The translations under genes were made by a program, and so were the position numbers. A stretch of DNA of 38,829 nucleotides from Escherichia phage N7, in the sequence record MH717096.1; one strand, written 5' to 3'. Below, in pieces: positions 20,751-30,617 of the stretch. A model generated the notes under the pieces. That model was not told the DNA's origin. It saw nothing but the letters and a program-made list of their open reading frames with translations, and searched no databases. Each line of letters starts with the position of its first letter. Position 1 is the stretch's first letter.

Positions 20751-20969
20751 TTTTTACCCGTCATGGAGTGCGGCTGTCAACGATCTGACGCGAACCATGA
20801 CGAACTGTGAATCTACGGAAGGCTTGATATTCAGGGGATTTTGCGGACTGGCACGGATGGTGGCGAACTGATAAATGGTGTCCCCTGCAGACATCTACTT
20901 GGCGCGGCAGGGGATTGATTGGAATGGTGTTTTTTAGATGTGAAAAATATTTTACCCGCTATTTTACCC
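20715..20969. other. candidate attP (arm-type 8-mer repeats flanking a tRNA-3'-end-like core)
   Basis: Five copies of TTTTACCC/GGGTAAAA at 20715, 20730, 20752, 20950, 20962 flank a 15-nt core at 20876-20890. Confidence 0.55.
20876..20890 (-). other. attP core candidate: minus strand reads CTGCAGGGGACACCA (tRNA acceptor 3' end + CCA)
   Basis: Plus strand TGGTGTCCCCTGCAG; its reverse complement matches my recollection of the 3' terminus of E. coli tRNA-Arg(CCU) argW; same orientation as int. Confidence 0.5.
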
Positions 20970-21164
20970 ATTGGCGCGGCTTAAGAGCTTATTTTTGAAT
21001 TCGCAATGGTCACGATATAACCATCTTGCTCGCCCGTGGATAACTTTGGCTTTTGGCAGGTCGCCGGACTTAATCCGGTCATAGATGAAGGTCTTACCGA
21101 AGCCAGTATCAGCCATGATGAATTTCAAATCAACCAGTGAATCAGGTTGTAGTTCGTGTTGCAT
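20964..21164 (-). CDS. xis: excisionase / AlpA-family HTH protein
   Basis: 66 aa; ...TFIYDRIKSGDLPKAKVIHGRARWLYRD fits the AlpA/Xis HTH pattern; upstream of int in the same orientation. Confidence 0.7.
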   Translation of the reverse strand: MQHELQPDSLVDLKFIMADTGFGKTFIYDRIKSGDLPKAKVIHGRARWLYRDHCEFKNKLLSRANG

Positions 21165-21208
21165 GAGTGCTATCTCCGAATAGGGAATCGAACCTGCAAA
21201 TCAGGCAA

Positions 21209-21231
21209 TAAAAAACCGCCATCAGGCGGCT
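21209..21231 (-). terminator. rho-independent terminator (minus strand)
   Basis: Minus strand GCCGCC-TGAT-GGCGG followed by TTTTTT; downstream of the small 55-aa ORF. Confidence 0.55.
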
Positions 21232-21389
21232 TGGTGTTCTTTCAGTTCTTCAATTCGAATATTGGTTACGTCTGCATGCGCTATCTGCGCCCATATCATC
21301 CAGTGGTTATAGCAGTCGTTGATGTCCTCTGCTTCGATAACCCTGTCGAATGGCTCTCCATTCCATTCACCTGTGACTCGGAAGTGCAT
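21222..21389 (-). CDS. hypothetical small protein (55 aa; not in ORF track)
   Basis: ATG at 21389 with SD GGAGATGA; translates MHFRVTGEWNGEPFDRVIEAEDINDCYNHWMIWAQIAHADVTNIRIEELKEHQAA; ends within the terminator. Confidence 0.35.
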   Translation of the reverse strand: MHFRVTGEWNGEPFDRVIEAEDINDCYNHWMIWAQIAHADVTNIRIEELKEHQAA

Positions 21390-21465
21390 TTATCATCTCC
21401 ATAAAACAAAACTCGCCGTAGCGAGTTCAGATAAAAGAAATCCCCGCGAGTGCGAGGATTGTTAT

Positions 21466-22191
21466 TCACCTTTGACGGCAAGTTGCAGGTTTGCCACGGT
21501 TAACCTCCTGCGGCGGTTCTGGTAGCGGCATCCAGTGGGTTACGTTGCTAATCAGTCCATATTCATTAGTTTGAGGATGGCCACCGCGATCGTCTCCGTA
21601 TTTAAAACTTTCCATAAAACCATAATGCTTACCCCCATTAACGCTCACAAAGCCGTAATAAGCTGGTATAACGCCGATCTCACACGTAATCAGCAAAGGA
21701 AAACCAGTTCTCCAATTTAGCTCGCCGATTACAGGCATTCGCTCACTACAGCTTATCCAACCATCCGGAGTTACCGGAGAGTTGCCGGGTTCTTTAATGT
21801 GCAAGCGAGGCTCACCATCTTTTGGCTCAGGCCACTGGCGCTCCATGTTGATCTTCAATTTATCTTCCATAGCAGCGGTAATTTCAGCATCGCTGATGCC
21901 AGCACGGCGCTGTGCATCCCACAACAGAAACTGCATATCAGCCCACTCGCTAAGATCGTCTGGTTCGGCTGCGGCTTCCAGTGCCTCTTTTGAGAGATGT
22001 TTCAGCGGACCAATGGGGCCAACGCAGCCAAATGTGGAGTCAGACCATTTGGCATGCTCGTGGCGAATCTGTTCGCGTTCCAGTGATGCCAGTGCAATTC
22101 GTGCCAGTTCCATTTGTTCGCCACGAGTAAGTCCGTTATCAAGCGGATTTTTAATGAATAATTTGATACGTTCTTTGGTTATAGCGCTCAT
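21466..22191 (-). CDS. hypothetical early protein with DUF551-like C-terminus
   Basis: ATG at 22191 (MSAITKER...) with SD GGAGAG; C-terminal HWMPLPEPP motif recalled as typical of DUF551 prophage proteins. Confidence 0.55.
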   Translation of the reverse strand: MSAITKERIKLFIKNPLDNGLTRGEQMELARIALASLEREQIRHEHAKWSDSTFGCVGPIGPLKHLSKEALEAAAEPDDLSEWADMQFLLWDAQRRAGISDAEITAAMEDKLKINMERQWPEPKDGEPRLHIKEPGNSPVTPDGWISCSERMPVIGELNWRTGFPLLITCEIGVIPAYYGFVSVNGGKHYGFMESFKYGDDRGGHPQTNEYGLISNVTHWMPLPEPPQEVNRGKPATCRQR

Positions 22192-22192
22192 A

Positions 22193-22636
22193 TCACTCTC
22201 CTTTGATGCGAATGCCAGTAGCGCGGATTGCATCGATGACTTCAGAAACTTTGTATGCCATTACCGTTTGGTAATCATCGTGAAAATCTGTTCGATGAAG
22301 CATGCTGCTACGTTCCGGGAGCAGTATTTCCCGCGCTTTCAGTTCTGCAATGCGCTTTTTTGCTGCTTCCAGTTCATCCAGTAATTCCAGCACGGTAGCT
22401 GGATTGGCTGCGGCGATGAATTCAGCATTGGCCTGCTGTTCCATTTGGAAATCTTCATCGAAACCGCTTTCAGGATGCGCTCCTTCAATTCTGCAAATGG
22501 GAAGATATCCAACAACGTCACGATGAATTAGCGCATCATCACAATCAAATCGGCTCTCTCCATATTCGAGCGACCACACACCACACGTTGCTTTCTCTGC
22601 CTTTTCACGCAGTGCCTGATAGTCAATCTTGCTCAC
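22193..22636 (-). CDS. hypothetical early protein (Ead/Ea22-like by recollection)
   Basis: 147 aa; N-terminal ...YQALREKAEKATCGVWSL...; tightly packed in the early-left operon. Confidence 0.5.
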   Translation of the reverse strand: MSKIDYQALREKAEKATCGVWSLEYGESRFDCDDALIHRDVVGYLPICRIEGAHPESGFDEDFQMEQQANAEFIAAANPATVLELLDELEAAKKRIAELKAREILLPERSSMLHRTDFHDDYQTVMAYKVSEVIDAIRATGIRIKGE

Positions 22637-23064
22637 TGGTTGCCTCCTTTGCGAAGCTGGGCAGCAAAGTCACGGATAGTGTCATCAAGTTCTGGGCACA
22701 ACAGATGGTCAGCAAACATCTCCACGCCCTGCGCCCGTACTTCATCCAGAAAAGCATCGGTGGCTGGGGTTTCAGTAACATCATCTTCCCATTCGCTAAA
22801 CTCCTCACGACAAAAGTCATTAAATTCCTTCTCAGATTGCTTAAGCGAGGTATTTTCAGCAGCCATCTTCGCGCATTTAGCCTCAAGGTTATCAATCGTG
22901 ATTCCAGCAGAACGACACTCCCGCAACGCCGTTTCTAGTTTTGATTCAAGTTCACCGAACTTACGGGCAAGATATTCAGCGTTTGTTTCGTTAACCTTTA
23001 AATCTCGTGGGATGCATTTACCTTTCAGAAATCCATCCATCTCAATTAGTGACATTTGTTTCAT
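22633..23064 (-). CDS. hypothetical early protein (143 aa)
   Basis: Acidic helical protein; start overlaps upstream stop. Confidence 0.5.
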
Positions 23065-23243
23065 TTCTTCCCACTCCGCAACATCGCATTCAGATATTTG
23101 TTGTCATTAACAGAACCGAAACTATTTCTCTTAAGCAATTCATCTCTCGATGGCATTGGCTTTACGCGTTGGCGAATAATCATTTCTGCCGGAAGAATGC
23201 CGGGATTGTATGCAAGTCCTCTCATGGTAAATTCCTCAGTCAT
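23061..23243 (-). CDS. hypothetical small protein (60 aa)
   Basis: ATG at 23243 ([15 protein letters not shown]...) overlaps the stop of the upstream gene; the ORF-track N-terminal extension is probably not translated. Confidence 0.4.
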
Positions 23244-23529
23244 TACTGATAGCGCCATAGCGTGAGCGGTAATTACGCAGGCGCGGGTCAATTTCAGGGA
23301 AGTGGGTATATGTGGCTTTGCGGAATGGTCGGATTGATGTCTGGTAAATTCGCTCGCGTTCTTCTTTCTCTGCAAGCCATATACAATGGCGAAATTCCTT
23401 TTCCTCTTTCGTTTCCTGCGGTAGCGACATTATCCGGTTGTAGTTTTTCCTGAATTTATCCAGCACCTCCGATACGGAATTGCCGGAACAGCGGCGCGCG
23501 TCATCCGCACCATACAGAGGCGCTGGCAT
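23236..23529 (-). CDS. hypothetical early protein (97 aa)
   Basis: Position and size resemble P22 abc2, but no sequence recollection supports homology. Confidence 0.5.
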
Positions 23530-23542
23530 GATTTTCTCCTGA

Positions 23543-24022
23543 TTAAATTGCGTGAATAGCGTGACGAGGGAAGGGGAGAGTTACTGGTTCCTCGTCTGGG
23601 TAGATAGGTTTGTTATGTTTGTGCCACTCGGCATGACATGACTTGCAGAGCCACATCACATCGGTTGGTTTGCTGTAGTCGCAGTGGTGCGCCTGTGGTT
23701 TACATTCTGATCCGCAGCACTCACATTGTGGTGGTCGGATTAGCTTACCGTCGCGCAAAAAATTACCCACGATGATGTGGGCTTTTCTTTTCCATGGGTT
23801 GCTCTGAATGAACCGCTTTTTGGCTGCGTTACACCGTTCTCTGCCGCGTTCCGATGATTGATATTCTCTCCTTGCTGATACTCGATGTGGCAATCCCGCG
23901 CGCTCTTTGTCGTATTCAGCCAGGCAAGCCCGGCAAGCGGCAGTTAATCCATCTCTGGATGCTCTTCTGATTTGAAAGTCCCTTTCTTCCTTCTGTTGAT
24001 GGCATCTTGAGCAGATTTTCAT
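23543..24022 (-). CDS. HNH nuclease-domain protein
   Basis: 159 aa; CxxC...CxxC plus HHCDYSKPTDVMWLCKSCHAEWH, an HNH-type pattern. Confidence 0.55.
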   Translation of the reverse strand: MKICSRCHQQKEERDFQIRRASRDGLTAACRACLAEYDKERAGLPHRVSARREYQSSERGRERCNAAKKRFIQSNPWKRKAHIIVGNFLRDGKLIRPPQCECCGSECKPQAHHCDYSKPTDVMWLCKSCHAEWHKHNKPIYPDEEPVTLPFPRHAIHAI

Positions 24023-24031
24023 ATTCAGCTC

Positions 24032-24505
24032 CTAGAACGGAATATCCGAATCGTCGAAGTTCATAGGTGGTTCGCTGTGATTTCCATGCTGCTGAGGTTG
24101 CTGTCTTTGTTGATGACCGTTATTTCGCTGAGGTGAAGACTGTTCATTGCCTCCTTGCTTGCCACCAAGCATTTGCATGGTTCCACCAACGCCCACGATG
24201 ACTTCGGTAGTGAACCGATCCTGTCCGCTTTGATCCTGCCACTTTCTTGTCCGCAATTTTCCTTCAAGATAAACCTCAGAGCCTTTTCGCAGATATTCGC
24301 TGGCAATTTCTGCCAGTTTTCCGCTCATTACCACGCGGTGCCACTCCGTCTGCTCCTTTTGCTCTCCAGTTTGCTTATCACGCCATTGTTCTGACGTAGC
24401 AACTGTAAGGTTTGCAAATGCCGTTCCTGATGGTGAATATCTGATTTCTGGATCATGTCCAAGGCGACCAATAATGATCACCTTATTTACGCCTCTGCTT
24501 GCCAT
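24032..24505 (-). CDS. ssb: single-stranded DNA-binding protein
   Basis: 157 aa; OB-fold N-terminus ([15 protein letters not shown]...), Q/G-rich linker, acidic tail [10 protein letters not shown]. Confidence 0.9.
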
Positions 24506-25213
24506 TTATGCCGCCTGTTTTAGTTCGTTAACTCTGATGTTCATTACCTGAACGCATTTAGCCTGCGCATCCTCATTGCCAGCCATTAATTGCCAGTCAT
24601 GCTGATAACGTTCGATGAGTTTTTTCTTGTCAGTTTCTGTCGACGCATAATCGCTGAAGTCTTTCAGGATTTGCTCGCAGTCAACCGATGGAGATTTCTG
24701 GTTGGTATTTTCTGGTGATGGTTTGTTATCTGATGCTGGGATTGCCCATCCCGGCAGCGATGGAGGGAGCCAGTAAAATCCTGTTCCATCCTTGAGTTTT
24801 GCCCTGTGCCACCCCTGCTTTTTATCGAGAGATGTTTGTGCGAAACCTTCCTCAAGGTTATACAGATACCGACCGATTCCCCACTGAACGGCAGCGCGCT
24901 TCATTGCACCGGAACGACCACCTTTGACGGCTTCTACCTGCGTGTTTTCAGCAGCATCCCATTTGGTTACCCATTCGGAATCAATCTTTATTGATATGCC
25001 GCATTCAACGCCGCCGTTGTTGGGAATATCGCGGTATTCATTGCGCCATCCTGCTTTGCCGCAAACATCGTCCAGGCGTTTCATGATTGCCCGGTTCGTG
25101 ACATAAGCCAGCACCATAGCCCACACTTTGCCATCGCGTGTTTTACCGCTTTGCTGTATTCGCCATTCGATATCTTCAGGGCTGAATGGCTCATCGAATT
25201 TATTCAAATCCAT
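24506..25213 (-). CDS. erf: single-strand annealing recombinase (Erf-like C-terminus, Rad52-like N-domain)
   Basis: C-terminal ...YASTETDKKKLIERYQHDWQLMAGNEDAQAKCVQVMNIRVNELKQAA matches recalled P22 Erf C-terminus; N-domain has KRAAVQWGIGRYLYNLE-type motif. Confidence 0.75.
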   Translation of the reverse strand: MDLNKFDEPFSPEDIEWRIQQSGKTRDGKVWAMVLAYVTNRAIMKRLDDVCGKAGWRNEYRDIPNNGGVECGISIKIDSEWVTKWDAAENTQVEAVKGGRSGAMKRAAVQWGIGRYLYNLEEGFAQTSLDKKQGWHRAKLKDGTGFYWLPPSLPGWAIPASDNKPSPENTNQKSPSVDCEQILKDFSDYASTETDKKKLIERYQHDWQLMAGNEDAQAKCVQVMNIRVNELKQAA

Positions 25214-25300
25214 AATTCACCTCAGAATGGACACGGCCCAAGGAAATAACGCTGATTTAATACTTCAGTCTTTGCCGCATTTAAAAATACGCGAACACCT

Positions 25301-25471
25301 TCACGATCTCCCTTCTGGCGATACATTAACGCCTGCTGCGTGTACATGCGTCTCTGTAACTTGCTCTCCTTCACTGTGGTTGCAAGTGACATGAATATCT
25401 CCTTCGTTACCGATTAATTCTTTCATCTGACGAATAAATTCTTCGTCTGACCAGTTATCTGTAAAACTCAT
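25301..25471 (-). CDS. hypothetical small protein (56 aa, kil/arf position)
   Basis: ATG at 25471 overlaps the stop of the upstream 50-aa gene (ATGA); an alternative overlapping ORF 25222-25392 with SD AAGGAGA also exists, so the real frame is uncertain. Confidence 0.3.
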   Translation of the reverse strand: MSFTDNWSDEEFIRQMKELIGNEGDIHVTCNHSEGEQVTETHVHAAGVNVSPEGRS

Positions 25472-25620
25472 TTCCTGCGATACCACGGAAGGTTGATAGC
25501 TGATTTCATCGCTTTATTTGCTTCAAGCCACATTTTGGAATCACCAATAAATCTGGCTATTACTGCTTTGTTTTGTGCTGCACGAAGCATCTGGTGATTG
25601 ATGGCTATTTCATTGCGCAT
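25468..25620 (-). CDS. hypothetical small protein (50 aa; not in ORF track)
   Basis: MRNEIAINHQMLRAAQNKAVIARFIGDSKMWLEANKAMKSAINLPWYRRK; overlaps the cIII 3' end. Confidence 0.3.
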   Translation of the reverse strand: MRNEIAINHQMLRAAQNKAVIARFIGDSKMWLEANKAMKSAINLPWYRRK

Positions 25621-25736
25621 AATAAGACCTCAACTCTTTTCCATCCGTCACGTAATTTACGGGTGATTCGTTCAAGTAAAGATTCATTTAGTTGGAAGGC
25701 ACCCATGCGAGCGCCTCCCGCGATTGCGTAAATCAT
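25605..25736 (-). CDS. cIII: CIII-like protein (43 aa; not in ORF track)
   Basis: MIYAIAGGARMGAFQLNESLLERITRKLRDGWKRVEVLLCAMK; ESLLERITRKLRDGWKR matches recalled lambda CIII core; SD AAGGAA. Confidence 0.6.
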   Translation of the reverse strand: MIYAIAGGARMGAFQLNESLLERITRKLRDGWKRVEVLLCAMK

Positions 25737-25760
25737 GGGTGGTTCCTTATGTTGGTTTTA

Positions 25761-26729
25761 TTAGTAGGTTATTTTTGTTGCGAATACTTCGCCTTTTACG
25801 ATGGCTGTTATGATATTTTTAGCAACATCTTCTGATGCACCAACCTTGATAAGGTCAGCAAGTATTTTGTTATTTACTTCTTTCCGGTGAGCTTTATCCT
25901 TTGCTCTACGCTCTTCTTCGTCCTTGATTCTTTTTTCTTCTGCTATTCTGGCTTGCTCTTTTGCTTCAGCTTCGCGCCGGATTCGTTCAGCCTCCTCCTG
26001 TGCTTTTCGGCGTTCTGCTTCAATTGCCGCCTGCTTTTCTCTTTCAGCTCGTTCTGCTGCCTCTTTTGCTTCGCGCTGTGCTCGTTGCTCGGCTTCAATG
26101 CGTTCACGCTCTGCACGTTCCGCTGCTGCCTTAGCTTCTGCTTCTCGCCTTGCTGCTGCTTCAATTTCGGCTTTTGCCTTTGCTTCGGCTTCTGCTCTGG
26201 CTTTCTCTTCAGCTTCTCTTTTTAAGCGTTCTTCATGCTCTCGCTTTTCCTGCTCCGCTTTGAGTCTTGCCTCTTCTCTTTTGCGGTCAAATTCGCGATC
26301 CATCAAAATCGCTATTTCATGGTCAGACTCAATTTGCTTTGCGAGAGCTTCAGCTGCTGCCTTAGCTTCTTCTTCGGCTTTAATCCGTGCCTGTTCATCC
26401 TCATAATCAGTAAGAGGCTGGCGCGCCTTGGCTTTCAGTTCATCAAGGCGATCGCGCACTGTCTTGCGGTTGGCATCAATTAGCTTTGGAATTTCCTTCA
26501 GTTCAGCAACAAGGTCTTTGCCAAGACCATCGAGATATGTTTTCGTCTGCGCAACTTTATACGCCAGAGAAGCGATCTCCTTTCTGCCCTTTGCCGTTGT
26601 GATATCAGGCACAAAGGACATAACTTCACGTTCAACCTTTTGAAGGATTTCTTCAATCTGGTCGGCAGACTGAAATACAGTCATTGCATTTGCTTTTTCA
26701 ATAACAACTAAATCTGTTACTTCACTCAT
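25761..26729 (-). CDS. hypothetical charged coiled-coil protein
   Basis: ATG at 26729 with SD GGAGGA (ORF-track start at 26783 is an extension); ~150-aa E/A/K/R-rich repeat (AEEKARAEAEAKAKAEIEAAARREAEAK...). Confidence 0.6.
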   Translation of the reverse strand: MSEVTDLVVIEKANAMTVFQSADQIEEILQKVEREVMSFVPDITTAKGRKEIASLAYKVAQTKTYLDGLGKDLVAELKEIPKLIDANRKTVRDRLDELKAKARQPLTDYEDEQARIKAEEEAKAAAEALAKQIESDHEIAILMDREFDRKREEARLKAEQEKREHEERLKREAEEKARAEAEAKAKAEIEAAARREAEAKAAAERAERERIEAEQRAQREAKEAAERAEREKQAAIEAERRKAQEEAERIRREAEAKEQARIAEEKRIKDEEERRAKDKAHRKEVNNKILADLIKVGASEDVAKNIITAIVKGEVFATKITY

Positions 26730-26741
26730 ATATCCTCCATC

Positions 26742-26770
26742 AAAAAAATTGCCCTCACACTGGAGGGCAA
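26742..26770 (-). terminator. rho-independent terminator (tL-like) just upstream of the coiled-coil gene
   Basis: Minus strand TTGCCCTC-CAGTGT-GAGGGCAA followed by TTTTTTT. Confidence 0.5.
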
Positions 26771-26917
26771 AGAAGATTTCCAATAATCAGAACAAGTCGG
26801 CTCCTGTTTAGTTACGAGCGACATTGCTCCGTGTATTCACTCGTTGGAATGAATACACAGTGCAGTGTTTATTCTGTTGTTTATGCCAAAAATGAAGGTC
26901 GACTATGTGGCCTGAAA

Positions 26918-27283
26918 TTACTTAACCAATGATGCTGCATATTCGATAAGGTAAAGTTTTGGAGCAAGCCAGATTTTCAGCCAGTCGAAATAATTGAAGA
27001 AAACAACAATAGAAGTAATCGCTATTCCTGATGTTACAAGTAGCGATAAAAGAAAAATATCCGCATCATCTCCTTTATTCCATGCAAAAATCATCAGATA
27101 AACACACGCTATAATCACCAATACACAGATAGCCTGAATTCCAGCTGATGATACGGCGTGCCACATCAAAAGCTGATGGATGACATCAGGAATCTGTGCC
27201 TGGCTAAATGAAACAGCCGCGTCTATTCCATTACTGGCTTTTTGCAGTAGTTCTACGAGAATCTTGTTTGCTTGTTCTTCCAT
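26918..27283 (-). CDS. hypothetical inner-membrane protein (candidate superinfection-exclusion type)
   Basis: 121 aa with two to three hydrophobic helices; SD AAGGGGA; lies between ral and the coiled-coil gene. Confidence 0.5.
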   Translation of the reverse strand: MEEQANKILVELLQKASNGIDAAVSFSQAQIPDVIHQLLMWHAVSSAGIQAICVLVIIACVYLMIFAWNKGDDADIFLLSLLVTSGIAITSIVVFFNYFDWLKIWLAPKLYLIEYAASLVK

Positions 27284-27342
27284 ATATCCCCTTGATTGTA
27301 ATAAGCATGAAATTATTTACGGCCAAAAAATAAAGGCCACCA

Positions 27343-27543
27343 TCAGGCAGCCTTGTTGTTCTGTTTACCAAGTTCTCTGGCAATCATTGCCGTAGTTCGT
27401 ATTGCCCATTTATCGACATATTTCCCATCTTCCATTACAGGAAACATTTCTTCAGGCTTAACCATGCATTCCGATTGCAGCTTGCATCCATTGCATCGTT
27501 TGAATTGTCCACACCATTGATTTTTATCAATAGTCGTAGTCAT
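27343..27543 (-). CDS. ral: restriction alleviation protein Ral
   Basis: 66 aa MTTTIDKNQWCGQFKRCNGCKLQSECMVKPEE..., matching recalled lambda Ral. Confidence 0.7.
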   Translation of the reverse strand: MTTTIDKNQWCGQFKRCNGCKLQSECMVKPEEMFPVMEDGKYVDKWAIRTTAMIARELGKQNNKAA

Positions 27544-27813
27544 AAGGATAGTCCTGGTATTGTTCCATCACATCCTGCGGATGCTCTTCGAACTCTTCAA
27601 ATTCTTCTTCCATATATCACCTCAAATAAGTGGTTTGCTGCGAAAATAAATCCGCTTAAGTTACCTGTTATTTATCCCACCAAGTTCCGTATCTATCTAT
27701 CCAGTTACACCAATCATCGACACTCCATTTTGTTGTGTCGCATTTTGGCAACTGGCATGAATATCTACCTTCTTTGTAAAGTCGGCGTTTGACTTTCTTG
27801 AGCATGGCTCACC

Positions 27814-28119
27814 TCAATCGTAATAAGCTGGAATTGATTTTCCGCGTTGCTTCTGGCGACCAACACAAGTAACACCCATTTCACTGCGTGGCTTGCGGTA
27901 GTAAATACGGTTCTGTTTACGCTCGACTTCATCTGTCTTCTTGCAGCGAAGGCTTCCGAGTGATGCTGCTTTGTCTGCTCTGACGCAACCAGAGAGCTTT
28001 AGCGCAATTTTTCGCGCCAGTCGCTGTTCTTGCATTGCCTGTTCACGTTGAGCCTGTCTGCGTGCTCTGCGGCGATTTCTGGCGTTATCGTCAGCCAGAT
28101 ATGTAATGACTACTGTCAT
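27814..28119 (-). CDS. N: antitermination protein N (phage-21-like)
   Basis: Arginine-rich N-terminus NARNRRRARRQAQRE; C-terminal ...YYRKPRSEMGVTCVGRQKQRGKSIP resembles recalled N proteins; first gene after pL/nutL. Confidence 0.8.
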   Translation of the reverse strand: MTVVITYLADDNARNRRRARRQAQREQAMQEQRLARKIALKLSGCVRADKAASLGSLRCKKTDEVERKQNRIYYRKPRSEMGVTCVGRQKQRGKSIPAYYD

Positions 28120-28226
28120 GTTGACCTCCGATGATTGACTTTGGCGGTGACGCGCCGGGTGCTTATCTTCCGGTTGCCGTCGTGCATCTGCACTTCACGT
28201 CACCCCAAAGCCAACTACTCTTTGGT

Positions 28227-28267
28227 TCCCGCATTTCGGCGGGACAATCCCATCAATGTTAAAGAGC
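28227..28267 (-). promoter_or_regulatory. nutL (boxA + boxB)
   Basis: Minus-strand boxA GCTCTTTAACA then boxB hairpin TCCCGC-CGAAAT-GCGGGA; the identical boxB occurs in nutR. Confidence 0.55.
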
Positions 28268-28304
28268 CTGCCAATCTGTTCCGTTTGGCTACCAGCGTCC
28301 TGCT

Positions 28305-28395
28305 GATGGCTTAAATTTAAGATCTCTTTAATTAATGGTCAAGAGTATTTTTGAAGAAAACTTAAATTTTCTTTCGTAACTTAAGTTTGGCTTTG
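28305..28395. promoter_or_regulatory. OL operators and pL
   Basis: Palindromes CTTAAATTTAAG (28310-28321), GAAAACTTAAATTTTC (28356-28371), AACTTAAGTT (28378-28387); minus-strand TTGACC-N17-TAAATT promoter. Confidence 0.5.
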
Positions 28396-28410
28396 ATTTT
28401 TAAAGGAAAT

Positions 28411-28436
28411 AAAAAAAAGGGGCGAATGCCCCCTTA
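28411..28436 (-). terminator. rho-independent terminator downstream of repressor gene
   Basis: Minus-strand GC-rich hairpin (GGGGC-ATTC-GCCCC) followed by TTTTTTTT. Confidence 0.6.
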
Positions 28437-29084
28437 TGGAAGGTTTGCTAGTTTTGCATCGACAACTACGCCGATGATTTTGCAGTTTCCGTTGATCTCG
28501 ATCATCGGATATTGTGGGTTAAGTGGTTTTAGAAACTTCCTGCCTGCATCAATAACTAACTTCTTGAAAGTTGCCTCGTTTTCTCCTTCGAGCTTTGCAA
28601 CTACCAGTTTCCCGTTACGCGGCTCTACTTCAGGATCGACGAGTATTATCATTCCTTCAGGGATACTGAGACCGGCCGGAGCCGTCATTGAGTCTCCCTT
28701 CACGTCCAACCAAAACGAATCTTCTGAACAGTCTACGGTTGTATCGTACCAGTTATCTATTGCACGCTTATGATATGGTTCTACAGCTTCCATCCAGCAT
28801 CCTGCGCTCACCCAGCTAATCAGAGGGTATGACCCTCTTGGATCATGCCTACTGTGATAGGCAATGTTTGAAAGACTTTCCTCTCCTTTCATCAGATAGT
28901 CAGGGGAACACTTCAACGCATTAGCCAGGGCGAGAAGATTCTCTCCATTTGGCTCTGTCTCAGAGCGTTCCCACTGAGATATGGCAACATTAGACACGCC
29001 GACCATCTTTCCAAGTGCGGCCTGCCTGATCTTGAGTTCTTTTCTCCGAGCGCGAATGCGCTCTCCCATCAATTGAGTTTTCAT
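28434..29084 (-). CDS. c2: prophage repressor (P22 C2 / CI type)
   Basis: 216 aa; MKTQLMGERIRARRKELKIRQAALGKMVGVSNVAISQWERSETEPNGENL... closely matches recalled P22 C2; C-terminal LexA-like autocleavage domain. Confidence 0.9.
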   Translation of the reverse strand: MKTQLMGERIRARRKELKIRQAALGKMVGVSNVAISQWERSETEPNGENLLALANALKCSPDYLMKGEESLSNIAYHSRHDPRGSYPLISWVSAGCWMEAVEPYHKRAIDNWYDTTVDCSEDSFWLDVKGDSMTAPAGLSIPEGMIILVDPEVEPRNGKLVVAKLEGENEATFKKLVIDAGRKFLKPLNPQYPMIEINGNCKIIGVVVDAKLANLP

Positions 29085-29164
29085 AGTTAAGACATCTTAA
29101 ATAAACTTGACTTAAGATTCCTTTAGTGGATAATTTAAGTGTTCTTTAATTTCGGAGCGAGTCT
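29085..29164. promoter_or_regulatory. OR operators with pRM/pR
   Basis: Operator-like TTAAGACATCTTAA and AATTTAAGTGTTCTTTAATT; pR TTGACT (29107-29112) and GATAAT (29129-29134). Confidence 0.6.
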
Positions 29165-29350
29165 ATGTACAAGAAAGATGTTATCGACCACTTCGGAACC
29201 CAGCGTGCTGTAGCTAAAGCGTTAGGCATTAGCGACGCAGCAGTCTCTCAGTGGAAGGAAGTCATCCCAGAGAAAGACGCCTATCGACTGGAAGTCGTTA
29301 CAGCTGGCGCCCTGAAGTATCAAGAAAGCGCTTACCGCAAAGCGGCATAA
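29165..29350 (+). CDS. cro: Cro
   Basis: 61 aa MYKKDVIDHFGTQRAVAKALGISDAAVSQWKEVIPEKDAYRLE..., near-identical to recalled P22 Cro. Confidence 0.9.
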   Translation: MYKKDVIDHFGTQRAVAKALGISDAAVSQWKEVIPEKDAYRLEVVTAGALKYQESAYRKAA

Positions 29351-29357
29351 GCAAATT

Positions 29358-29400
29358 GCTCTTTAACAGTCATGGTCCTCATTCCCGCCGAAATGCGGGA
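29358..29400 (+). promoter_or_regulatory. nutR (boxA + boxB)
   Basis: GCTCTTTAACA followed by hairpin TCCCGC-CGAAAT-GCGGGA between cro and c1. Confidence 0.55.
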
Positions 29401-29458
29401 ATACAACGCGCATAAGTTGATGCGCATAACTTCTTATTTGTTAAGGAAATACTTACAT

Positions 29459-29737
29459 ATGGAACTTACAAGTACTCGCAAGAAAGCGAATGCAATTACA
29501 AGCAACATCCTGAATCGAATTGCTGTACGTGGTCAGCGAAAGGTTGCCGACGCGTTAGGGATTAATGAATCGCAAATTTCGCGATGGAAAGACAGCTTCA
29601 TCCCAAAAATGGGAATGCTTCTTGCTGTTCTTGAATGGGGTGTTGAAGACGAGGAGTTGGCGGAACTGGCTAAGAAAGTAGCCAGAATGCTGACAAAAGA
29701 AAAAGCCCCGAAGAACGGCGAATTCTTCGAGGCCTGA
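29459..29737 (+). CDS. c1: C1 (lambda CII analogue)
   Basis: ATG at 29459 after AAGGAAA gives 92 aa MELTSTRKKANAITSNILNRIAVRGQRKVADALGINESQISRWK..., matching recalled P22 C1. Confidence 0.8.
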   Translation: MELTSTRKKANAITSNILNRIAVRGQRKVADALGINESQISRWKDSFIPKMGMLLAVLEWGVEDEELAELAKKVARMLTKEKAPKNGEFFEA

Positions 29738-29771
29738 TGTAGAAAGACTGGATCAATCCACAGGAGTCATT

Positions 29772-30617
29772 ATGACAAATACAGCAAAAATACTCAACTT
29801 CGGCAGAGGTAACTTTGCCGAACAGGAGCTAAGAGTGGCTGATATCGATGATGGTTACACCAGATTCGCTAACGAGCTGCTGGAAGCTATCGCAAGTGCC
29901 GATTTAACCGCTCGCCAGTTGAAAGTTATGCTGGCCTACGTCCGGAAAACATATGGCTTCAATAAGAAAACAGATCGAATAGCCGATGAGCAAATTGCTC
30001 AGTTAACAGGACTGTCAAGGCAGAATGTTAACAAGGCTAAAAAAGAACTGATTTCAATGAATTGCCTGTTTATGGATGGAAATCAAATCGGTGTAAACAG
30101 GGAGGTATCTGCGTGGCAATTCAGCAAGTGTCTCCAAGTTAGCAACTTTGTCTCGAAGTTAGAGACAAAAAGTGTCTCCAAATTAGAGACACTCAATGTC
30201 TCGAAGTTAGAGACACACAAAAGACATTCTTTAAAGACAAAAGAAAATATTAATAAACCCCCTATATCCCCCAAAAAAGTTTCTCAGAAGTTCGACCCGC
30301 TAGAAACAGAGTTGCCTGATTGGTTATCAGCAGAAACATGGTTGTCGTGGGTTACCTATCGCAAGGAGATAGGTAAGTCGATCAAGTCTAAGCAAAGTGT
30401 CACTCAGGCTATCAACGTTCTATGCAGAAGTCTGGAGAAGGGATATACACCTGAAGAAATTATAAACCAGAGCATCGCCAGTGGTTGGCAGGGTATTTTT
30501 GAGCCCAAGACTCCAAAGGGGAAATCTCAACCGAGGCCGCAGCATCGAGCTATGCAGGAAAACTTTGCCACCAAAGATTACGGACAAACTGAAATGCCTT
30601 CATGGGCGCAGGAGTGA
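29772..30617 (+). CDS. O: replication initiator (lambda O / P22 gene 18 type)
   Basis: N-terminus MTNTAKILNFGRGNFAEQE... matches recalled lambda O; iterons lie inside the gene. Confidence 0.8.
   Translation: MTNTAKILNFGRGNFAEQELRVADIDDGYTRFANELLEAIASADLTARQLKVMLAYVRKTYGFNKKTDRIADEQIAQLTGLSRQNVNKAKKELISMNCLFMDGNQIGVNREVSAWQFSKCLQVSNFVSKLETKSVSKLETLNVSKLETHKRHSLKTKENINKPPISPKKVSQKFDPLETELPDWLSAETWLSWVTYRKEIGKSIKSKQSVTQAINVLCRSLEKGYTPEEIINQSIASGWQGIFEPKTPKGKSQPRPQHRAMQENFATKDYGQTEMPSWAQE
30129..30215. repeat. origin iterons (4 x ~19 bp, consensus TGTCTCSAARTTAGAGACA, 24-bp period)
   Basis: Repeats begin at 30129, 30149, 30173, 30197; followed by an AT-rich stretch 30216-30270. Confidence 0.65.

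Follow-up and report, generated by a model that had tools for sequence, protein, structure and literature searches.

Recombination proteins with related domains

The Erf protein of phage P22 has been described as consisting of two domains connected by a hinge (Poteete et al. 1983, cited in PMC2629481 and PMC8022706). It is accepted that cores of the ERF, Sak and Rad52 types are remotely homologous to one another (PMC2896510, PMC11783212), and the part of a 2025 survey that deals with lambdoid annealases sorts them "by their strand-annealing domain" (PMC12315714). An 'Erf domain swap' has been discussed in the genome papers of epsilon34 and phage L, which cite work on Sf6, ES18 and HK97/HK022 (PMC2629481, PMC8022706), and the N-terminal region of the phage L protein was reported to be unrelated to P22 Erf (PMC8022706). 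In single-strand annealing proteins (SSAPs) from Firmicutes a C-terminal domain common to the Sak4, RecT and Erf/Sak3/Rad52 clusters was ascribed to domain shuffling and reported to be remotely homologous to the C-terminal domain (CTD) of lambda Redbeta (PMC8093625).

The DNA analysed here, referred to as the window, comprises 38,829 nucleotides of Escherichia phage N7 (record MH717096.1). Its SSAP has orthologues in Sf6 (gene 28; 232 of 235 residues identical), mEp235 (gene 32; 99.1%, annotated as Rad52/22) and ES18 (gene 49; 93%). Sf6 gp28, mEp235 gp32, IME10 Orf252, ES18 gp49, epsilon34 gp36 and the 'Erf' proteins of ST64T and L all possess a Rad52 core, a linker and a tail of the P22/window type (tail A), and differ from the window SSAP by only a few substitutions; Sf6, epsilon34, ST64T and L have the full-length protein in common at about 87-99% identity. 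More distant is Sak of the lactococcal phages ul36 and Q33, the prototype of bacterial-virus Rad52 homologues. It belongs to the same Pfam family and has a core with 59% identity to the window protein over aa 6-159, but the similarity ends at about aa 159 and there is no likeness to the window tail.

The combination of a Rad52 core with an Erf tail is real, but papers on phages have described it since about 2004. Our additions are modest: a count of tail clusters with mixed cores, a recombinant with its crossover in the linker, carriers with a RecT core and an apparent restriction to Enterobacterales. For the locus as a whole the best explanation, to which we give a probability of roughly 80%, is a two-domain SSAP whose tail has been shuffled between cores and would serve as an adaptor for a partner.

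The SSAP gene and its surroundings

The original prediction placed a chimeric annealase at 24506-25213. This gene is real and has exactly these ends, but it is encoded on the minus strand (Table 1). The open reading frame is preceded by a GAGG Shine-Dalgarno sequence, and its TAA stop codon immediately adjoins the ATG of the downstream ssb, which encodes a classical SSB with the tip DSDIPF. On the minus strand the order is: 340-aa protein, kil, two overlapping small ORFs, SSAP, SSB, endonuclease and Abc2. The same order was found in Sf6 (genes 33 to 25), where cIII sits between gene 33 and kil, and the arrangement kil - small orfs - SSAP - ssb - endonuclease - abc2 is typical of the Sf6/mEp235/ES18 group, except that in mEp235 an exonuclease takes the place of the Cys-rich endonuclease of the window. 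Sf6 and IME10 match about 67-76% of positions 20000..30000 at about 97% identity. The window represents a lambdoid phage of the P22-like/Sf6-like kind, from E. coli or Shigella, and the gene encodes the SSAP of its early-left recombination module.

Table 1. Features of the SSAP locus; coordinates refer to the window, amino acids to the SSAP unless stated otherwise
Feature	Coordinates	Strand	Evidence or remarks
SSAP gene, complete, 235 aa	24506..25213	-	ATG..TAA ORF, from ORF list
Rad52-fold ssDNA-annealing core, aa 4-136	24806..25204	-	Pfam PF04098, AlphaFold, Foldseek
KRAAVQWGIGRYLY motif, aa 105-118	24860..24901	-	end of long core helix and following turn
Core extension, conserved, aa 137-160	24734..24805	-	beta-meander and W148-P151-L153-P154-W156 segment
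Linker, Pro/Ser/Asn/Gln-rich, aa 161-176	24686..24733	-	disordered, hypervariable
C-terminal tail, predicted three-helix bundle, aa 177-235	24509..24685	-	BLASTP, AlphaFold, profile search
Sole stretch of the SSAP gene with DNA similarity to P22	24506..24658	-	blastn, 79.7% to erf 3' end
Phage-encoded SSB, 157 aa, C-terminus ...NFDDSDIPF	24032..24505	-	Pfam SSB, E=1e-38
Putative endonuclease, Cys-rich, 159 aa, orthologue of Sf6 gene 26	23543..24022	-	phrog_2340 'endonuclease', E=3e-47; Sf6 annotation
Abc2 anti-RecBCD protein, 97 aa	23236..23529	-	phrog_656, E=3e-54; identical to HK022 Abc2 ORF
Cassette of SSAP, SSB and endonuclease genes	23533..25220	-	blastn of window against HK022
Small ORF, 56 aa	25222..25392	-	
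Small ORF, 61 aa	25301..25486	-	
kil	25468..25620	-	
340-aa protein, orthologue of Sf6 gene 33	25761..26783	-	

Comparison with HK022 revealed the borders of the module that was exchanged. By blastn, the window matched HK022 at 98% in 25221..25622 and at 97% in 22937..23532, with no match between. The cassette of SSAP, SSB and endonuclease genes stands in place of the HK022 erf gene and a short gene for an SSB-like protein of 127 aa, while the flanks are near-identical. An Erf of the HK022/HK97 type resembles the window protein in its setting (kil, the two small orfs and abc2 are near-identical) and in a tail of the same domain family (36% identity), but it has an ERF core, another tail subtype and the 127-aa SSB-like gene instead of SSB and endonuclease genes.

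This unusual SSB-like protein was found directly after the SSAP in HK022 (L004 2689-3072), PhiR12 (L009 2686-3069) and Yersinia phage 21.09 (L008 2695-3159). It comprises 127 aa in HK022 and PhiR12, where it starts with MAHSITVRLNKPAREF, and 154 aa in the Yersinia phage, where it starts with MGHTITIKLQKPAREF; the tip is DDSIPF or DDDIPF. The RefSeq record of HK022 carries no annotation of this gene.

Several other features of the neighbourhood deserve mention. The two small ORFs just upstream of the SSAP gene have 92 nt in common, which are read in different frames. Both have identical counterparts in HK022, correspond to Sf6 genes 29 and 30 and carry the label 'recombinase' in PHROGs. Each was considered as a homologue of P22 Arf, but the only match, in the 61-aa ORF, is confined to the seven residues WSDEEFI (pairwise E=0.014) and the proteins belong to different PHROGs, so that this assignment was not adopted. 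The last 15 or so residues of the endonuclease (…PVTLPFPRHAIHAI; 23543..23588, minus strand) equal a C-terminal extension located beyond the DDDIPF tip in the SSB of mEp235, and the DNA is 100% identical for 46 nt. The common C-terminus looks like a mosaic boundary sequence that has come to lie in two different genes; an SSB-like stretch in gene 26 is also mentioned in the annotation of Sf6. The 340-aa protein contains a long, highly charged stretch rich in Glu, Ala, Lys and Arg, probably a coiled coil, and had no match in Pfam; a Yersinia phage gene at the corresponding position is annotated as TolA-like.

A Rad52 core

As the original prediction had supposed, the N-terminal domain is of the Rad52/Sak type. 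Residues 1-160, searched separately, matched the Pfam family Rad52_Rad22 (PF04098) at aa 4-136, covering profile positions 7-153 of 153 with E=5.1e-26 and 91.9 bits (cut-off 20.3). Neither these residues nor the full-length SSAP matched ERF (PF04404) at E<=1, a family to which P22 Erf itself (AF217253) is assigned with E=4.6e-46 and 157 bits. An alignment of 35 homologues revealed dozens of invariant positions in an extremely conserved core. The KRAAVQWGIGRYLY motif quoted in the prediction is present, and nearly every one of its residues is invariant.

An AlphaFold model of the SSAP was obtained with the 35 homologues and had a mean pLDDT of 82. The modelled core (aa 1-160) is composed of a beta-sheet, a helix at 93-110 and a small beta-meander; pLDDT was mostly 80-94 (about 90), dropping to about 55 around aa 91-100. 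When the full model was compared with the PDB by Foldseek, the top 16 matches were all yeast Mgm101 or the N-domain of human RAD52 (probability 0.99-1.0), with TM-scores that were modest (0.3-0.5) because the query included tail and linker. The core is therefore predicted to adopt the Rad52 N-domain fold and to be Rad52/Mgm101-like. Judging from its 59% identity to lactococcal Sak, it presumably forms rings and would bind ssDNA and anneal complementary strands, as do lactococcal Sak, RAD52 and Mgm101.

Beyond the Pfam match the core continues into a conserved extension, for which the model predicts strands at 126-128, 136-139 and 145-149 with pLDDT values of 80-93. Residues W148, P151, L153, P154 and W156 are invariant in the 35 homologues. 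The extension is also present in lactococcal Sak, whose alignment runs through aa 159. A weak phmmer match (E=0.1) to the WW domain of PRP40 was observed for aa 129-164 (GWHRAKLKDGTGFYWLPPSLPGWAIP; 24722..24829, minus strand). The SSAP has no match to WW in Pfam, and with such weak support a WW domain was not adopted; AlphaFold places a confident small three-stranded meander there.

An Erf-type tail on a variable linker

Compared with P22 Erf by BLASTP, only aa 157-235 aligned, to Erf residues 134-205, with 52 of 79 positions identical (66%, E=2e-32). Over the last 56 aa the identity rises to 79% (44/56), and over the last 45 to 36/45. It had been predicted that the last 45 or so residues match P22 Erf almost exactly; the match itself is confirmed, but at about 80% identity it is less than exact. 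A collinear alignment of the two proteins over their full length, named beforehand as evidence against a chimera, was absent in the BLASTP comparison, and the separate searches proposed at that time gave Rad52_Rad22 for aa 1-160 and an alignment with P22 Erf for the tail. At the DNA level the similarity of the SSAP gene to P22 is restricted to its end (Table 1) and stops at the stop codon; the other P22 matches within 22500..26000 were located at 25638..25754 and in the abc2 region (23075..23539). Chance would not produce values anywhere near those of the Pfam and BLASTP matches. Apart from the tail, what the window protein has in common with P22 Erf is its position in the early-left operon and an organisation in two domains joined by a hinge. 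It differs in that P22 Erf has an ERF core, not Rad52_Rad22, and in that erf is followed by abc1, not ssb.

In the model the tail contains three helices (179-192, 196-209 and 214-234). [quoted passage not shown] The linker in front of it has pLDDT values below 50 at aa 162-175, and both its length and its sequence are hypervariable among the 35 homologues. In the same alignment the tail splits into several distinct subtypes. Its helix-3 arginine R227 is nevertheless invariant in the 35 homologues with a Rad52 core as well as in nine tails from mixed cores. Pfam gave nothing significant for aa 161-235. With a profile of the tail, hmmsearch against PDB sequences returned the receptor-binding coiled-coil helix of colicins E2, E3 and E9 as a weak match to tail helix 3 (24509..24601, minus strand; ERQAKAVQVYNSRKSELDAA versus QAKCVQVMNIRVNELKQAA; E=0.005-0.05). 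We discarded this candidate as probably a chance similarity of two helices.

The full-length protein also matched phrog_1097, labelled 'Erf-like ssDNA annealing protein', over aa 1-235 (profile 2-251 of 251, E=4.6e-130). Alignment to a single known family had been proposed as an argument against domain shuffling, and formally such a family exists, but phrog_1097 is this very mosaic. Database labels of this kind rest solely on the tail and the position of the gene, and the term 'Erf-type tail' is itself an accident of naming.

Exchange of cores and tails

It might be argued that the SSAP is no chimera at all and that it descended vertically from an ancestor common with P22 Erf, the N-domain having diverged faster than the tail. 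The remote homology of ERF, Sak and Rad52 cores (PMC2896510, PMC11783212) would permit this, and PHROGs places the full-length protein in one family labelled 'Erf-like'. We consider it extremely improbable. Within the same pair of proteins the tail is 79% identical to P22 Erf but the N-terminal domains, in a forced global alignment, only 16%. The reverse pattern is seen when P22 Erf is compared with HK022 Erf: their cores are near-identical and their tails only about 35% identical. Two further observations, described below, speak against vertical descent, namely that tails of one type are found on both kinds of core and that a prophage gene switches its affiliation within the linker.

The first observation comes from clustering tails at 70% identity. 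For this purpose tails were extracted by HMM from a set of 120 proteins with a Rad52 core, of which 115 matched the tail HMM, and 120 with an ERF core, of which 118 did, and combined with the named phages and additional ERF and RecT carriers. Four clusters contained both ERF and Rad52 cores: the HK022 type (112 ERF, 1 Rad52), the P22/window type or tail A (7 ERF, 35 Rad52), the GZ7 type (2 ERF, 25 Rad52) and the Erwinia-49 type (2 ERF, 4 Rad52).

The second is provided by an E. coli prophage (GCA_012349825.2; locus L013, 3001-3678) encoding the SSAP P0038. Its core is identical to the window core at 159 of 160 positions, and its tail agrees with that of HK022 Erf at 100% of positions. Within an overlap of 11 nt in the linker (SDNKPSP|TPEQVLKAF) the DNA changes over from resembling the window (95%) to resembling HK022 (93%). 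Downstream of the SSAP gene follow the HK022 short SSB and then an Abc2 gene, with about 93% DNA identity to HK022. This SSAP is a natural recombinant with its crossover inside the linker.

The domain shuffling that the original prediction had suggested is thus borne out by the four tail subtypes common to ERF and Rad52 cores and by the linker crossover in the prophage; congruent trees for core and tail are already contradicted by the same two results. The linker is the recombination junction of core and tail, and recombination in it has repeatedly re-assorted the two. Because ERF and Rad52/Sak cores are distant members of one superfamily, the domains exchanged are diverged forms of a single fold. 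In our sample the P22-type tail was five times commoner on Rad52 than on ERF cores, so that P22 Erf may have been the recipient of its tail and not the donor; with a sample biased by the way it was drawn, this is only a suggestion.

Distribution of the tail

A tblastn search with the tail against 50,697 phage records gave matches in 169, all of them phages of Enterobacterales. Pfam scans showed the tail on Rad52 cores in the window, ES18 and Yersinia phage 21.09. On ERF cores, its identity to the window tail was 75% in P22, 47% in Klebsiella phage GZ7, 44% in Erwinia phage 49, 39% in Morganella phage IME1369_01 and 36% in the HK022/HK97 type.

A profile of the tail (59 positions) was searched against 1.84 billion representative proteins and found in 45 of these cluster representatives; in every match consisting of a single stretch the tail was C-terminal. 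Other domains recognised by Pfam on the 45 proteins were ERF (13), RecT (2) and Rad52 (1). Full-length proteins with RecT and the tail occur in SPN1S-like phages (SPN1S gp38) and in Klebsiella phages, and the named distant carriers belong to Cronobacter, Arsenophonus, E. coli and Klebsiella. For Rad52-core homologues from phages of Lactococcus, Vibrio, Pseudoalteromonas and Rhodothermus the alignment ended at about aa 133-165, with no similarity to the tail. The tail thus appears to be confined to phages of Enterobacterales.

In three proteins the tail lies in frame behind an unrelated sequence: an N antiterminator peptide (P0002), a fragment of a Dam methyltransferase (P0274) and a fragment of DUF1980 (P0257). 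These are probably fusions that arose by prophage decay, either as deletion products or as assembly chimeras.

Possible function of the tail

By analogy with the CTD of lambda Redbeta, the tail would be dispensable for annealing and would tether the annealase to a partner, leading to its loading on the right ssDNA in vivo. The Redbeta CTD binds the acidic C-terminal tip of SSB. It is a three-helix bundle that interacts with lambda Exo as well as SSB and is required in vivo, although annealing does not depend on it (PMC8303780, PMC5052646), and C-terminal regions of SSAPs are more generally dispensable for annealing and serve contacts with partners (PMC11783212). The window SSAP resembles Redbeta in possessing an N-terminal annealing domain and a small C-terminal three-helix bundle. 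The tail differs from the Redbeta CTD in having no detectable sequence homology or specific structural match to it: hhalign of the tail profile against the Redbeta CTD gave a probability of 0.8% (with a single-sequence template and hence low sensitivity), and no specific structural neighbour was found, including the three-helix bundles of the Redbeta CTD and lambda Orf type. The homology to Redbeta described for the Firmicutes domain (PMC8093625) was likewise not reproduced for the window tail with this single-sequence template. An independent, tethered domain that occurs on three different cores fits an adaptor contacting SSB, and we judge the role of a partner-binding adaptor in general to be somewhat more likely than not.

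The likeliest partner would be SSB, either the phage protein encoded just downstream or that of the host, both of which end in D-x-IPF. An SSB with this ending is encoded directly downstream of the SSAP in the window, ES18, mEp235, Yersinia 21.09, HK022 and PhiR12; in Morganella phage IME1369_01 the downstream SSB ends in D-V-PF, and in Sf6 an SSB gene is likewise annotated at this place. The invariant R227 would fit a site that binds an acidic peptide. On the other hand, no SSB gene was found beside the tail-bearing SSAP in P22, Klebsiella phage GZ7 and Erwinia phage 49. Moreover, if the partner were the near-invariant tip of SSB, the strong divergence of the tail subtypes, which have about 35% identity, would have to be explained in some other way. 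SSB is proposed only tentatively, as the leading candidate but less likely than not.

The main alternative partner is the RecBCD complex modified by Abc2. The tail would dock the annealase on this complex, or on another nuclease of the module, and load it on nascent ssDNA, which corresponds to the Exo half of the Redbeta analogy and not to the SSB half; the Redbeta CTD does bind its cognate exonuclease (PMC8303780). The operon also encodes Abc2 in the window, P22, HK022, ES18, Sf6, mEp235 and the prophages at L013, L014 and L015, and P22, whose Erf bears the tail without an SSB gene, depends on Abc1/Abc2. However, the RecT protein with the tail in SPN1S lies beside an exonuclease VIII-type gene, with no Abc2 annotated in the stretch examined, and going by annotation no neighbour of the SSAP is Abc2 in GZ7 or Erwinia phage 49. 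The same Abc2 is also paired with tails of only about 35% identity, with no sign of co-variation. We regard docking on RecBCD-Abc2 or a nuclease as unlikely.

In fact no neighbouring gene (small orfs, Abc2 or SSB type) co-varied cleanly with the tail subtype. The window, which has tail A, and HK022, which has the HK022-type tail (tail B), share identical small genes upstream and an identical Abc2. Tail A is accompanied by SSB in the window and by Abc1 in P22 and in the carrier of P0216. Tail B and the short SSB were found together in two cases, HK022 and L013, and this may be simple linkage.

Alternatively the tail might need no external partner and act within the protein, influencing ring or filament assembly or the release of DNA in an auto-inhibitory or oligomer-modulating manner. 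With its flexible tether the bundle could fold back onto the ring, and C-terminal regions modulate the oligomeric state of Mgm101 (PMC3655812) and Redbeta (PMC5052646). Such a role would call for a co-adapted interface, which is hard to reconcile with one tail on three very different cores (ERF, Rad52 and RecT) and one core accepting two tails with only about 35% identity between them. We consider it quite improbable, and prefer the tail as an adaptor for a partner.

Significance

The SSAP gene of the window matters little in itself, being a near-identical copy of genes for proteins of sequenced phages, and its product is a textbook example of the mosaicism of lambdoid phages at a domain boundary. 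The re-assortment of one tail among three families of annealase cores is of modest practical value. Recombineering is limited by the portability of SSAPs between hosts, which is thought to be determined by C-terminal contacts with partners such as SSB. A broader proposal, which we offer as speculative and rather doubtful, is that the tail would be an exchangeable docking cassette specific to Enterobacterales, usable by ERF, Rad52/Sak and RecT cores and directed at one partner from the host or the module. If this were true, P22 Erf itself would be a minority recombinant that acquired a tail found mostly on Rad52 cores, the partner would explain why these recombinases work only in certain hosts, and rational swapping of tails could be used to port recombineering enzymes.
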